A DNA stretch of 64,000 nucleotides from the NCBI RefSeq assembly GCF_016903815.1, contig NZ_CP069973.1; one strand, written 5' to 3'. This document shows, in pieces, positions 1-6,000 of this stretch. The position numbers were made by a program. Each line of letters begins with the position of its first letter. Within the stretch, counting starts at the first letter, position 1. This DNA is from Escherichia coli (GTDB lineage: Bacteria; Pseudomonadota; Gammaproteobacteria; Enterobacterales; Enterobacteriaceae).

Positions 1-3000
1 GGTGATGTACCAGGCTGTTGTTACAGATTTTTAACTCCATGAAAACACTATGCAAACGCAGCCATACCCGGGTTGTCCCCTTGCGTTGTGTTTCTCAAGT
101 TAATAGAATACATCGATCGTTACTATCATATCGATCGTTATAAACGATCGTTTGTAGTAAATGACCTCCTCCTTGGTTGTCATGAAAATGCGTCTTAGGA
201 AGGTTAAATAATGCACGAAAAGAACATCGCCCTGCTTTGTGATGAAGCCGACCGACTTTTGCAACTGAACATTAATCTGCTCCGGCAAATGGTTGAGGAG
301 CCAGATGTGTTATCTGACAGTAAGAACGAAAACAGACTGCTTTTTGATAAACAGAAAGCACTGAAAAGAATTGAGGAGCTGGAGGGCGAACAAATCAAAA
401 CCGCCCGCAGGGAGATGGTGCTGGCTGTTGTCGGCACGATGAAAGCAGGCAAATCAACCACCATCAACGCCATTGTGGGGCAGGAAATTCTGCCTAACCG
501 TAACCGCCCCATGACCTCTGTACCGACGCTCATCCGCCACGTTCCCGGAAAAACTGAGCCGGTTCTCCATCTGGAACATATTCAGCCTGTCCGCAATTTA
601 TTAATCACACTGCAGGAAAAACTCGCCACCCCGGCAGGACAGCAGGTCGCACAGACCCTGCAGCAAACCGGGGATACCCGCGAACTGCTGGATATTCTGA
701 CGGATGATGGCTGGCTCAAAAATGAATACCACGGGGAGGAGGAAATCTTTACCGGACTGGCATCGTTAAACGATCTGGTTCGTCTTGCTGCGGCAATGGG
801 GACTGAATTTCCTTTTGATGAATACGCCGAAGTGCAGAAACTGCCGGTGATCGACGTGGAATTCAGCCATCTGGTGGGGATGGATGCATGCCAGGGAACA
901 CTCACACTGCTGGATACCCCCGGCCCTAATGAGGCCGGACAACCGCAGATGGAAGTGATGATGCGGGATCAACTGCAGAAAGCCTCTGCGGTTCTGGCTG
1001 TGATGGATTACACCCAGATGAACTCAAAAGCGGATGAAGACGTCCGTAAAGAGCTTAATGCCATTGCTGACGTATCAGCCGGCCGCCTGTTTGTACTGGT
1101 CAATAAATTTGATGAGAAAGACCGCAATGGCGATGGGGCAGATGCCGTACGCCAGAAAGTTCCGGCAATGCTGAACAGCGATGTGCTGCCCGCCTCCCGT
1201 GTTTATCCCGGATCCTCACGCCAGGCATACCTGGCTAACCGTGCGCTTCATGAGTTACGGAAAAACGGAACCCTTCCTGTTGATGAAGCCTGGGTCGATG
1301 ATTTTATCAGAGGTGCCTTCGGTTGCATGAAAAAAGAATACGTCTGTAAAGACAGTGAACTGGCAACTGAAGGGGCGACAGACCTGTGGGAAGGCTCACT
1401 TATCGATCAACTGATAACGGAAGTCATACAGAGCTCACATTCCAGAGCTGCGGCACTGGCGGTTGACTCTGCCGCCGCAAAACTGATGCAGAATGCAGAA
1501 AATATCAGTGAATACCTGTTGTTACGCCATCAGGGGCTACAGCAAAGCATTCAGTCACTGCAGTCGCATATCACCAGCCTGCTTGCGGATATCCGGGAAA
1601 TCGCGGACTGTCAGGAGCAGATGACCACTGATGTCAGAATGGCCATGGAGGAGATCGATACTAAAACCCGGGAATTACTGACGGGGGTCTGCACCTCACT
1701 GGAAGAGGAGCTGAATGACTATTTCAGAAGCGGTAAACGCAAAGAACAGCAAATGCTGGAGGAAGAAGACGCAGAACAACGAAGGTCTCAGTCCGGATTA
1801 TGGGGGAAAATTTCTCAATGGTCCGGTATCAACAACCAGGGCCGGGAGGATTACAGGAAACGAGATTTTGCCCCGGACAGCCCCGAAATAAAATTCAGTG
1901 ATCGCAGGGAAGCCCTTGAACTGATGACGCAAATCGAATCGACCGTGACCAGCCTGCACCGTGAGGCTGAAGCACAGTTCCGGCCTGAGCTGGAGAAAAT
2001 CGTCAGCGGGATTGAAACAGGTTTTCGTGGCACGGCCCTGTACGCCACAGAAAACATTGCCGGTCGCATCAATGCCCGCCTGGAGGATGAGGGCTTTACC
2101 GTAAAAATCAGTTTTCCGGCAGTCAGCCAGTTACAGACCCGGCTCGCGGTAAAAATAAATCTGAGTGCGCTTATGGAGGAAAGAACGGAGACCGTCACCC
2201 GTCGCCGTCGGCAGAGTGGCGTATGGGGAACCGTTTGTCGATGGTTTGGCACCAGTGACCTGGGCTGGGAAAACTATGACGAGGATGTGAGTCGCAGCGT
2301 GATCAATATCAACAAGGTCAGAGAGGAAGTTATGTCACTGACCCGGGCATATTTCGGGGAGCTGCAGGCATCCATTGAGCAGGATATTAACCAGCCCGTC
2401 CGCCAGGAAATCGATGCCTTTTTCTGCGCATTCAGGGAGAAAGTTGAACAACTGCGTAACACGCTGATTCAGAGCTCTGAAGATCATAAACGCGATCAGC
2501 AGGCGCAGGAACGGCTTACCGGGCGACTTCAGGCATTAAATGAAAGGGTTCCTGAGCTCATTACTGACAGTAAGGCGCTGAGGGAAGAGCTGGAGACAAT
2601 GCTGTGACTTCACCATTTATTCAACAAATTGCTGATAACCGGGTATGTCAGGTACTCACCTGTCTTCCTGAAAAATTTGTGGTTGATTTCGCAAACGGAA
2701 TCGATGTTGCACAGGAGCATATCCGCACGGCCGGAGAGCGCACGTTCTTCCGGCGTTTAAAAGAGGGGCTGACCGGCGAAGGCGCTGCACGGCAGAATGC
2801 CATCAATGCGTCGCTTGCACAGGGCGTTGAGGCGTCCCTGCGCTGGCTGACGGAGATGACAACGTCACTTGCCACCACAAACTACGCGATTACCCGGGTA
2901 AACGACAGGGTCAGTTCACTGGTCAGTGATACAGCCAGGCTGGCGCATTATTCCGCAGATACGCGGGAGCAGTTACTCACCCTGGCCGATCAGGTTCACC

Positions 3001-6000
3001 ATAAACTGAATCATCTTGAAGAAAAACTCCACCGTGTTGACCAGGTTCAGCGGGCGCAGTTACATCTTGAGCAGATATTCTCATGGTGGAGCGCCGGGCG
3101 ATATGCGTCATTTTCCCCTGCCGGACGTTGTTATGTGGCACTTGAAGAGCTTCGCTGGGGCGCGTTTGGTGATGTGATACGTCAGAGCGAAACAGGCCAG
3201 GTTAACCAGCTACTGGATATTCTCAGACATAAAGCATTAACGCAGATGGCACAGGAGAGTGGCGGTAGTGCAACCGTGCGTCTGAACACTCTGGACTGGC
3301 TTGGTGGTCAGGGCCGGGAGCAGGCAGATAACGAGTGGCATGACGCGATTAACTGGCTGGGAGACTGGTGCAGTGAAGAGCAGCATCCGGTGATCTGGTC
3401 AACCACGCAGGCTGCAGAACACTTACCGGTTCGCATGCCTCGCCTCTGCTCTGCAGAACGCCTCTCTGAAAGTATGGTCGATGAAATATTTCAGAAGGGG
3501 GCTGCATGAGTACAGAAATGAAAACGGGGCTGGTGCTGTCCGGTGGCGGGGCGGTGGGCGCTTATCAGGCGGGAGTGGTTAAGGCACTGGCAGAGTGTGG
3601 TACACAGATCAGCATGGTTTCAGGGGCCAGCATTGGCGCATTCAATGGTGCCATTATCGCGGCCTCTCCCGATCTGTCAGAAGCTGCCGTACGCCTGGAG
3701 GCGCTCTGGGATCATCTGGGGAATAATCAGGTGCTGTCGGTAAACAGATTGGTTTACTTTTCATTGCTGAAAAAATTGTTCCAGGCAATGAACCTCTGCC
3801 AGATCCCCGGACGTGCAGGAGCACTGCTTACGACGCTTCTTCGCCATATATCGACAATCAACGGGTTTGACAATCTGATGGCTCAGCCGTTGTTGTCAGA
3901 TGAGCCCCTGACAGCGCTGATGGATCATTATCTTGATACTGATGCTCTGGCAGACGGGCTACCGCTGTATGTGTCGCTGTACCCCACAGAAGGGGGCATG
4001 CAGGATATTATTGACTGCATTCGTGCTGAACTGGGTGTCGGAACCACGAAAAACGCCGTTTTTCAGCATATCCAGAGCCTGCCCCGCGGACAGCAGAAAG
4101 AGGCTCTGCTTGCGTCAGCCGCGCTGCCCCTGCTGTTCCGTCCCCGTGAGGTTCAGGGGACAATGTTCGGTGATGGTGGTATGGGAGGATGGCGAAATAT
4201 GCAGGGAAATACCCCTGTGACGCCTCTGGTCGATGCCGGATGCAATATGGTGATTGTGACGCATCTGAGTGACGGTTCTTTATGGGATCGCCAGGCTTTT
4301 CCGGACACCACAATCCTTGAGATCCGTCCCCGGAAAAGGCTGAAATATGCAGGTGATGGTGGCAACAGCGGCGGTCTGCTCAGTTTTACATCGGCACATA
4401 CCGACGCCTGGCGTCAGCAGGGCTATGAAGACACGATGCTGGCGATGGAGCATATCCGGAAACCGCTGGCAGCACGTCAGGCACTGACCCGGTCAGAGGC
4501 GGTATTGCAGAAAAGCCTGGATATAACGGAAGAGGCAGATTTGGCACTGAGAAACGCGATGGCCCGGATTAAATAAAGACGCCCCAAAGAAACGCCACCG
4601 CCTGTGGTGGTGTTTTTCCTGTCTGGTGTTATTGAAAATATTTTCAGATATATATTACCTGAGAGAAAGTTTTACCCCTCACCTGTCAATTCACTCACTG
4701 GAAATTTAATTATGAAATTACCTGTAAAGTTATTAATGAGCCTTATATCTCTGGTCAGCGTTATTGCACGTGCCGGGGAATATAAAAATTACAGCCGGGA
4801 TGAAATAAAATACTGGCGATATACATCATACAAGGGGGGGAAACTTCCGGAAGGTTTCACTGATGAGAAATTTTCCAGCGCCATTTACAACGGAAGAATA
4901 TTTACAATGAAACGTTTACATACCCTTATGTTATTTCTGGCGGTTCTGTTCACGGGCTTTAACTTTAACGCAGAAGCGGCTACCGTAAAACAAGCTCTTA
5001 GTTGTAACCCAGAAGCCTGGGCTGAACAACCTGGAGCGTGTCCATCAACGTACGAGTTGTACGAAGGTGACGCTACCTACAAAGCCGCTATCGACAAAGC
5101 ATTAAAACCGGTCGGACTGAGCGGCATGTTCGGTAAAGGCGGCTATATGGATGGCCCTGGTGGAGGTATCACGCCAGTAAACATTAACGGTACAGTCTGG
5201 TTCCAGGGCGACGGTTGCAAAGCCAATACCTGCGGCTGGGACTTTATCGTAACACTCTATAACCCAAAAACCCATGAAGTTGTTGGCTACCGTTACTTTG
5301 GTTTAGATGACCCGGCCTACCTGGTTTGGTTCGGTGAAATTGGCGTGCATGAATTCGCGTATCTGGTGAAAAACTACGTAGCTGCGGTTAACTAATTTAA
5401 GGAGTCTATCATGAAAACTTTTATCAAAACTTTACTCGTTGCTGTAACTATTCTGTTCTCTGTCTTCGCTACTGCGAAACAAGTAAAACTGCCAAATAAC
5501 ATCAAATACGTTAATACTACAGAAGCGTTTTCCTGTACCGAAATTGACGGTATGAATTGCCAGACAAAGAATCAGTTCAACTATAAAGATAACAGCTATG
5601 TTTTCGTGCTTGAACGTGGTGGTGCCTGGTGCTACGACTACACTGTCTCGGTAGTTAACCTGAAAACCGGGAAAGCACAAATGATTGAATACGGGGACAA
5701 TCAACTGTGCTCAGGTAGCAACAAACCGTTCTTCGAAATCAAAAATGGCGTACCGACGGTAGGAGTCATCGACACATCCGGAAAACCTGTCGTTGTAGCC
5801 CAGGACAAACTTAAAATCTAAGGAGTAAACCATGCGTTTCTCTGCACATTATTAATATCAAAGGTAAATACAGCCCCAGCCATTGTTACCGGAAAGCCGC
5901 TTAATGCGTGGCTCGCCAGTGAAAGGCCTCTCAGACAATAAACCTTATTCATTTCACCCGTCAGGCCGCGTCTTCTCCGGGAGACGCGGCTTTTTTCATT

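Follow-up and report, generated by a model that had tools for sequence, protein, structure and literature searches.

We were interested whether three tightly packed genes at the start of a 64,000-nucleotide stretch of Escherichia coli DNA (RefSeq assembly GCF_016903815.1, contig NZ_CP069973.1; the whole stretch is called the window here) form a system for defence against phages, and whether such a system has been described before. The genes code for a dynamin-like GTPase, a helical partner protein and a patatin-like phospholipase, and an initial annotation made from the sequence had proposed them as an undescribed anti-phage module. Our analysis identified a conserved, horizontally mobile cassette that is not a named defence system, yet has the genomic signature of one, and we give about an even chance to the reading that it acts as a GTPase-gated phospholipase effector in a defence of the abortive-infection type. 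The three genes and the signals next to them were located as follows:

197-203, + strand: Shine-Dalgarno-like AGGAAGG before gene 1 (sequence reading)
211-2607, + strand: gene 1, dynamin-like GTPase of the RdcA (YjdA/CrfC) family, 798 residues (open reading frame, Pfam, alignment)
2604-3509, + strand: gene 2, partner protein of the YjcZ/RdcB family, 301 residues, GTG start, predicted all-alpha (open reading frame, Pfam)
3506-4576, + strand: gene 3, patatin-like phospholipase, 356 residues (open reading frame, Pfam, Foldseek)
4593-4620, + strand: intrinsic-terminator-like hairpin with T-run that closes the operon (terminator scan and sequence reading)

As the frames lie on the + strand between 211 and 4576, the junctions overlap and the hairpin with its T-run follows directly past the third stop, the trio was regarded as one operon. 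Both junctions are 4-bp overlaps (GTGA at 2604-2607 and ATGA at 3506-3509), each with a Shine-Dalgarno-like purine run ahead of it, so that the reading frames and overlaps were found exactly as in the initial annotation. The motifs it had named for the GTPase and the patatin could also be read and proved to be invariant in the orthologues; for the P-loop lysine the motif was correct, while the residue number had to be changed from K80 to K81. The G+C content of the trio is 0.53-0.55. Past the terminator two small open reading frames follow on the + strand (4712-5395 and 5411-5821; G+C content 0.44-0.46), whose products have signal-peptide-like N-termini (MKLPVKLLMSLISLVSVIARA... and MKTFIKTLLVAVTILFSVFATA...), the first with an additional internal signal-like segment, and a strong terminator-like hairpin lies downstream of them at 5963-5992. 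An NCBIfam scan of the two products gave no match. They were rejected as members of the operon because of their position past the terminator, the lower G+C content and the missing family match, and because trio loci outside Escherichia share no recurrent downstream neighbour.

The linkage of the three genes was followed with an alignment scan for YjcZ in one genome per species (100,044 species), which led to 79 loci. All 26 loci with a YjcZ of the type of protein 2 showed the order dynamin-YjcZ-patatin, and all 53 loci with an RdcB-type YjcZ consisted of two genes only, without a patatin; every named genus among the latter belongs to the Enterobacteriaceae. Lipase homologues with 45-65% identity were detected in Pectobacterium, Yersinia, Erwinia, Plesiomonas, Providencia, Budvicia, Vibrio and Pseudomonas, and in the three contexts fetched (Pseudomonas, Vibrio and Pectobacterium) the lipase gene was each time preceded by genes for a Dynamin_N protein of ~800 residues and a YjcZ protein of ~300 residues with overlapping junctions. 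Together, the 26 loci and these three further species gave 29 further trio loci at the species level, from Gamma- and Betaproteobacteria including Chromatiaceae (among the 26 are Escherichia albertii, Pantoea, Erwinia, Budvicia, Serratia, many Pseudomonas, Allochromatium, Thiodictyon, Marinospirillum, Macromonas, Aquaspirillum, Comamonadaceae, Paenacidovorax, Gallionella and Yanghanlia); trios were also found on plasmids. The order holds down to ~33-45% identity, and the junctions overlap or are at most 18 nt apart in 30 of the 30 loci that retain the dynamin gene. The patatin motifs GGGxxG, GxSxG and DGG are invariant in 28 distinct orthologues, the GTPase motifs G1 to G4 in all dynamin orthologues with sequence at these positions (26-28 of 29), and the catalytic residues are unchanged across orthologues with 33-67% identity. 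This invariance is far beyond chance and, judging from the alignments, both enzymes are under purifying selection.

An exhaustive profile search of 1.84 billion representatives recovered only 480 YjcZ-family clusters (at 50% identity). Among the best 150 of these, 137 were of the trio type and 13 of the RdcB type, and three out of three distant members sampled from the bottom of the list sit in trios. Most of the YjcZ family therefore has the trio architecture, and RdcA/RdcB is the exception. Such a distribution suggests that RdcA/RdcB may be a derived minority form that arose by loss of the lipase. Of two neighbour-joining trees, one nests RdcA beside the trios of Budvicia and Serratia, and in the other the two clades are reciprocally monophyletic; as both are unrooted, have no outgroup and disagree, the direction of the change is not settled by them. 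Three-gene linkage was thus strict in the protein-2-type loci, the three further species and the distant members alike. Other effectors combined with a YjcZ/dynamin pair, an exchange that is typical of modular defence systems, were looked for and not found; every non-RdcB member examined has the patatin. Within E. coli the trio region (5 kb, at least 80% coverage) occurs in 2442 of 5426 complete genomes (~45%) with up to 5 copies per genome, and a variant of 62% identity is carried on ~25 plasmids of Enterobacter, Klebsiella and E. coli. No match to the YjcZ protein was obtained in 50,697 phage records, and the cassette is thus not phage cargo.

Protein 1 matched Pfam Dynamin_N (1.6e-17) with all four G motifs (G1 as G75-x4-G80-K81-S82, G2 as T102, G3 as D235-TPG238, G4 as N298-K299-F-D301), and protein 2 matched YjcZ (PF13990, 4.7e-70) over the whole model. 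As in RdcA/RdcB of E. coli K-12, an N-terminal dynamin-type GTPase with a helical C-terminal half is encoded ahead of a coupled PF13990 gene (here by the 4-bp overlap), and the proteins can be aligned over their full length: protein 1 with RdcA at 33% identity (E 9e-121, residues 57-798) and protein 2 with RdcB (YjcZ) at 30% identity (E 2e-37). Both GTPases share the G motifs, K82 and T103 of RdcA corresponding to K81 and T102. The kinship with CrfC(YjdA)/YjcZ that the initial annotation had assumed was confirmed in this way, and it was also right that the K-12 pair has no phospholipase, as rdcA-rdcB adjoin proP with no third gene. The identities of 33% and 30%, together with a score of 556 bits for protein 1 on the NCBIfam CrfC equivalog NF007368, which falls short of the orthology cutoff of 1146, indicate that proteins 1 and 2 are distant paralogues of RdcA/RdcB and not the housekeeping genes. 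The trio differs from the pair in its linked patatin, in its mobile site, instead of a two-gene operon at the core site yjdM-rdcAB-proP, and in an extra insertion in the GTPase. A housekeeping CrfC/YjcZ locus with an unrelated lipase, by which the initial annotation would have been refuted, is therefore not the case here, the proteins being paralogues and the lipase strictly linked.

The insertion lies at about residues 520-550, is basic and amphipathic and is deleted in the RdcA clade according to the alignment. Its wider region (residues 515-560, DNA ~1753-1890) is poorly conserved, with a Lys/Arg-rich stretch followed by an amphipathic one, and in this E. coli GTPase it resembles a partial duplicate (RRSQSGLWGKISQWSG) of a second element, a basic, Trp-rich motif at residues 662-690 (RRRxSGxWG..C.W..DDWGWE in the alignment). 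In the longer form VTRRRRxSGxWGTxCxWFxTDDWGWExY (residues 655-700 of protein 1, DNA ~2173-2310) this highly conserved motif is found in all trio GTPases and is weaker in RdcA. The insertion may serve as a membrane-binding paddle, and both elements could fit direct membrane binding or an inner-membrane placement of a complex. A structure model of protein 2 was all-helical (predicted local distance difference test, pLDDT, 79), and a comparison with solved structures gave no informative relative.

For the K-12 proteins more is known: RdcA forms dimers, interacts with RdcB and docks at a target on the membrane, with the nucleotide-free form being active and GTP being inhibitory; RdcA is described as soluble, RdcB may be a GTPase-activating protein or a nucleotide-release factor, and both are activators of the diguanylate cyclase DgcE via its MASE1 domain (PMC6510439). 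The trio might then be a second signalling pair of this type that acts on cyclic di-GMP and biofilm formation through DgcE or another MASE1 protein, with the patatin as accessory lipid-signalling or localising enzyme and the cassette as a phase-varied module for colonisation or lifestyle. The full-length homology fits this explanation, as do the promoter slot and switch, described below, which are those of the biofilm adhesin Ag43. Nevertheless, we consider it improbable, as no more than 30-33% of the residues are identical and the score reaches just half of the CrfC equivalog cutoff, and as trios occur in Betaproteobacteria, Chromatiaceae, Vibrio and Pseudomonas whereas the two-gene form was recovered in Enterobacteriaceae only. 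In addition, a strictly conserved and catalytically intact lipase is more in line with the lipase being the output.

Protein 3 matched Pfam Patatin (7.4e-24) and belongs to the patatin superfamily by sequence and by model, with the motifs G13-G-G-x-x-G18, G40-A-S42-I-G44 and D223-G-G, the dyad S42/D223 and the oxyanion loop G13-G15. A model calculated from a 42-sequence alignment (pLDDT 78) was compared with the PDB by Foldseek, which gave as neighbours, in this order, PlpD (E 8.5e-12, 24% identity), CapV/CapE of the cyclic-oligonucleotide-based antiphage signalling system (CBASS), VipD, plant patatin and ExoU; cPLA2 was likewise among the matches. The protein ends in a confidently predicted helix of 60 residues (296-355) that is conserved in the family. 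The VipD structure matched is the crystal with the GTPase Rab5 (PDB 4kyi), and binding of Rab5 reportedly switches VipD on. Bacterial patatins such as CapV/CapE, VipD and ExoU stay inactive as long as no ligand or protein cofactor is bound, the cofactor of ExoU being ubiquitin. VipD from Legionella and ExoU from Pseudomonas are therefore precedents for a patatin switched on allosterically by a protein cofactor, in the case of VipD a GTPase, although both are secreted anti-eukaryotic effectors with large extra domains, whose cofactors are a small Ras-like GTPase or ubiquitin and no dynamin-like protein encoded alongside them.

From these likenesses a GTPase-gated phospholipase can be outlined. 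The RdcA-type GTPase and its YjcZ/RdcB partner would form a nucleotide-gated switch with the co-translated cytoplasmic patatin as output, and the GTPase pair would keep the lipase silent, by analogy with RdcA/RdcB of K-12. If the GTPase cycle were perturbed, either by a fall or hijacking of the GTP pool or by membrane damage in infection, the lipase would be licensed at the inner membrane, and hydrolysis of membrane phospholipids would stop or kill the infected cell; the target would be phages or further kinds of invading element. We infer that the three proteins are physically coupled and that the GTPase pair activates the lipase, and the same holds for the trigger, for a phenotype of defence and for phase variation.

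Shortened patatin alleles of ~200-260 residues are very common in E. coli, with hundreds of members in some clusters; strains of O157:H7 and O104:H4 are among those that have them, and the name 'ferredoxin reductase' has been wrongly given to some. This suggests repeated inactivation of the effector.

None of the known systems compared accounts for the trio. Scans of the three proteins against PADLOC-DB v2 and NCBIfam gave no meaningful match in the former and no system-level match in the latter. In the comparison with Eleos, the PADLOC model LeoBC matched protein 1 with E 8.6e-5 in the P-loop region only (residues 29-89), and there was no LeoA match; the PADLOC phospholipase effector models reached E 1e-4 at best, limited to the N-terminal motif, and the CBASS_lipase model NF041079 gave 18.3 bits on protein 3 at a cutoff of 200. 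Eleos consists of a pair of successive dynamin-like proteins, and its P-loop mutants lose defence (Millman et al., 2022, bioRxiv 10.1101/2022.05.11.491447). The trio resembles it in that a dynamin-superfamily GTPase is encoded in defence islands, and resembles both Eleos and DynA in using such a GTPase, but has a single dynamin-like protein, whereas Eleos has LeoA and LeoBC with neither YjcZ nor lipase; membership in Eleos was rejected on the gene number and the missing LeoA match. CapV and CapE of CBASS are, like protein 3 with its top structural neighbours, cytoplasmic patatin phospholipases, and the trio lipase may be likened to them in being kept silent until a signal arrives. However, no cyclase or second-messenger gene is present in the operon or its flanks, the lipase model scores far below its cutoff, protein 3 has its own long C-terminal helix, and the proposed activator would be the GTPase pair and not a cyclic nucleotide, so that membership in CBASS was rejected as well.

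The genomic neighbourhoods of the trio loci were inspected over ~30 neighbouring proteins. Outside Escherichia the flanks differ in nearly every locus, and integrases, a relaxase and genes of CP4-type islands are found nearby. Regulators with a WYL domain (BrxR/CapW-like) are adjacent in 10 of the 29 loci. Known defence genes include those of the bacteriophage exclusion system (BREX), with BrxC in Pantoea eucrina and PglZ plus BrxL in Vibrio, methyltransferases of type III in E. albertii and of type I in P. putida, SIR2 and an IetA-like ATPase (AAA protein) in P. fluorescens, an SNF2 helicase accompanied by a protein resembling restriction enzymes in Erwinia, and MADS-like proteins in two Pseudomonas; DndB- and TGT-type (Dpd-like) genes lie near the trio on one further metagenomic contig. 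Altogether at least 16 of the 29 loci have a WYL regulator or known defence genes nearby, a semi-quantitative count for which no background rate was computed and which is, with this limit, comparable to the ~60% defence-neighbourhood figure of Eleos (Millman et al., 2022, bioRxiv 10.1101/2022.05.11.491447). The defence-rich and mobile settings expected for an anti-phage system, that is a recurrent co-localisation with defence genes on variable mobile flanks, were thus encountered.

These neighbourhoods also bear on two other explanations. In the first, the trio is a module for membrane remodelling or repair and not for suicide: the GTPase would tether or fuse damaged inner membranes, as does DynA of Bacillus subtilis, or vesiculate them, as has been proposed for LeoABC, the patatin would remodel lipids locally, supplying for instance lysolipids for curvature, and the preserved membrane would delay lysis by phages or give stress tolerance. 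Established roles of dynamin-like proteins include the surveillance of membranes and a defence that does not kill the cell (PMC8844932, PMC12998192); the amphipathic, basic insertion of the trio GTPases would also suit such a role, and the island setting in pathogens resembles that of LeoABC. We still regard it as unlikely, because the closest studied relative, the soluble RdcA, is a signalling switch and not a fusogen, because the nearest lipase folds are those of toxins and CBASS killers, and because WYL regulators and restriction-modification or BREX neighbours fit inducible immunity better than housekeeping repair. The cassette is moreover accessory and patchy, with 26 species representatives of ~100,000 in the pattern-based scan.

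In the second, the patatin is the toxin of an addiction module of islands and plasmids, neutralised by the GTPase pair, so that the mobile element tends to be retained, and without a dedicated anti-phage role. Its location on islands and plasmids beside the toxin-antitoxin genes cbtA/cbeA and ccdAB, the tight translational coupling and the frequent lipase truncations would all be expected. We nevertheless think there is little chance of it: a two-protein 'antitoxin' of 1,100 residues with a conserved GTPase cycle would be far more elaborate than known antitoxins, cells with a classical module would die in the OFF phase if their toxin outlasted the antitoxin, and the WYL and restriction-modification or BREX neighbourhoods point to immunity. 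Furthermore, it overlaps with the phospholipase defence favoured above, many modules of the toxin-antitoxin type being defence systems.

Several points speak against a gated phospholipase for defence. The association with defence genes stands without a genome-wide background comparison, and the downstream flank of the Pectobacterium trio is a biosynthetic cluster. The only plasmid locus examined, from Enterobacter, sits among metabolic cargo with its dynamin gene cut by IS1, so that the plasmid context was dismissed as an uninformative clue to function. The studied relatives RdcA/RdcB are signalling and not immunity proteins, and the short patatin alleles fit a decaying cryptic island as well as a costly effector. 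A literature search found no phenotype of any kind reported for the trio, which is likewise not mentioned in a survey of E. coli defence islands. To our knowledge, screens in which E. coli DNA was selected by function for resistance to phages have not yielded the trio either.

In the window the operon is part of a CP4-44-type island inserted between cobU and yeeA. Upstream lies a gene for a YeeP-like GTPase, and downstream follow the two small open reading frames, DUF932, an antirestriction gene, yeeS, yeeT, cbeA and cbtA, in agreement with the initial annotation, in which the genes were cargo of a prophage remnant beside antirestriction and toxin-antitoxin genes. The corresponding slot in K-12 holds flu (antigen 43) and yeeR. 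Directly upstream of the window a protein of 383 residues with no family match is encoded in addition to the YeeP-like small GTPase, which is of the Era/Der type. YeeP-like GTPases also flank trios in Pseudomonas, Pectobacterium, E. albertii and Serratia, and probably belong to the backbone of the islands and not to the system. The toxin gene cbtA (8731-9104, + strand) is frameshifted in this strain, while the antitoxin gene cbeA (8274-8642) is intact.

With this frameshift in the neighbourhood, an upstream island full of insertion sequence elements and pseudogenes, and truncated patatin alleles being common in E. coli, the operon might have no function in this strain and be what is left of a cryptic prophage-like island in decay. 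This is very improbable, as the three frames are intact with invariant catalytic residues, as promoter, Shine-Dalgarno sites and terminator are preserved, and as the operon is transcribed in E. coli MP1 (PMC12922286).

Upstream of gene 1 the intergenic region contains two further elements:

81-150, + strand: predicted promoter with agn43-type Dam/OxyR operator (alignment with the K-12 yeeP-flu intergenic region)
116-210, + strand: predicted 5' leader of ~95 nt (sequence reading; start by homology with the 5' end of K-12 flu/isrC)

The predicted promoter has a -35 box TTGCGT (81-86), a spacer of 17 nt and a -10 box TAGAAT (104-109), and is followed by three GATC sites at 115-118, 133-136 and 146-149. 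Positions 101-150 read TAATAGAATACATCGATCGTTACTATCATATCGATCGTTATAAACGATCG and align with the agn43 regulatory region of K-12, TAATAGAATAAAACGATCAATATCTATTTTATCGATCGTTTATATCGATCG. The homology to the K-12 yeeP-flu intergenic region is a discrete conserved block (TAATAGAATA..CGATC..CTAT..TATCGATCG..CGATCG) with diverged flanks, and the GATC spacing is 18/13 here versus 19/13 in K-12 (positions 5317, 5336 and 5349 of the K-12 stretch). In K-12 the first GATC coincides with the 5' end annotated for the flu leader isrC, from which a transcription start at about 116 was predicted here. Promoter and three-site operator were thus identified by sequence homology. The isrC part of the flu leader is not conserved, and an Rfam scan of positions 1-10000, leader included, gave no match. 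The same operator block lies upstream of the E. albertii trio, and it is joined to the 5' end of the dynamin gene in 1981 of 5426 complete E. coli genomes; upstream of trios in other genera it is absent. In the O157:H7 copies listed no agn43-type switch is found upstream, the match starting only at window position 200.

At agn43, transcription is repressed while OxyR occupies the operator, and OxyR is blocked when Dam methylates the GATC sites, which results in phase variation between heritable ON and OFF states (PMC3764049). The trio shares with agn43 (flu) the -10 box with the three-GATC operator and the position right after the YeeP-like GTPase gene of a CP4-type island, but the cargo is a cytoplasmic enzyme operon and not a surface adhesin or lipopolysaccharide modifier, and the leader has ~95 instead of ~220 nt. 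From this homology the Escherichia trio is predicted to be phase-variable by Dam and OxyR, and behind the antigen-43 operator the cassette would be expressed only in a heritable, reversible subpopulation. For traits that affect phage susceptibility such Dam/OxyR switches are known from gtr and opvAB of Salmonella (PMC2909390, PMC3350482). The regulatory input of the cassette seems to be swapped according to the host, with WYL regulators upstream of or beside the trio outside Escherichia and the agn43-type switch in that position within.

As to an earlier description, RefSeq names the product of gene 2 'RdcB family', and in E. coli MP1 homologous dynamin/RdcB/phospholipase operons have been reported on two islands, where they were among the most up-regulated genes in Kapi1 lysogens and were called putative dynamin phage-defence systems (PMC12922286, 2026). 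The authors found no link between a phospholipase and a bacterial dynamin in the literature (PMC12922286). Apart from this transcriptome note, our literature search for a named system yielded only a passing listing of the trio genes in an O118 genomics paper. The 'undescribed' of the initial annotation therefore stands in so far as no named system was matched, and does not in so far as the RefSeq name and the 2026 paper precede it. New in this analysis are the strict three-gene linkage, the trio being the majority form of the YjcZ family, and the predicted Dam/OxyR switch; no literature linking GATC or OxyR to the trio genes was found.

A strong difference of the operon between MP1 lineages is as expected for a phase-variable locus, and lineages founded by cells in different phase states may be a simpler explanation of the 'lysogen-specific' up-regulation. 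This pitfall of the founder's phase state has been described for Ag43 (PMC3764049), and the MP1 paper does not mention phase variation (PMC12922286). Differences in expression between sister lineages, as for the Kapi1 lysogens, may then reflect phase state rather than regulation. The 'five genes' for which co-regulation was reported in MP1 may include the two small open reading frames downstream of our operon.

A cassette without an assigned function is thus present in ~45% of the complete E. coli genomes, many of which have more than one copy, and is also found across diverse Proteobacteria. Should it serve in defence, it would represent a new sensor-effector design, in which a dynamin-like GTPase switch is coupled to a phospholipase, and a bacterial parallel to GTPase-controlled membrane immunity of eukaryotes. 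A wider proposal is that the trio is a new immune family, in which GTPase and partner sense the state of the GTP pool or membrane and license the lipase to destroy the membrane of an infected cell, that RdcA/RdcB is its domesticated, lipase-less remnant rewired to DgcE, and that expression in Escherichia is bistable through a Dam/OxyR switch which antigen 43 either donated or has in common with it; all of this together we regard as tentative and rather doubtful. If true, RdcA/RdcB, the only studied proteins of the YjcZ family, would originate from a mobile cassette, and nearly half of the E. coli genomes would carry an epigenetically phase-variable abortive-infection system. With a real switch, phage susceptibility or self-killing by the lipase would vary from cell to cell within a clone.

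Two minor observations may be added. In a study of resistance evolution in ATCC 25922 (PMC7696260) unusually many 'mutations' are listed in crfC (122), rssA (75) and yeeP (10), which are the names an annotator would give to trio genes and their neighbour. Rather than real mutation, the likelier cause seems to be mis-mapping among island copies that are paralogous. Finally, the window from ~25000 to 64000 is core chromosome, with the his operon, wzzB, ugd, an IS200C between ugd and gnd, an O-antigen cluster of the O102 type (its wzx and wzy carry O102-family annotations) and the colanic acid cluster.

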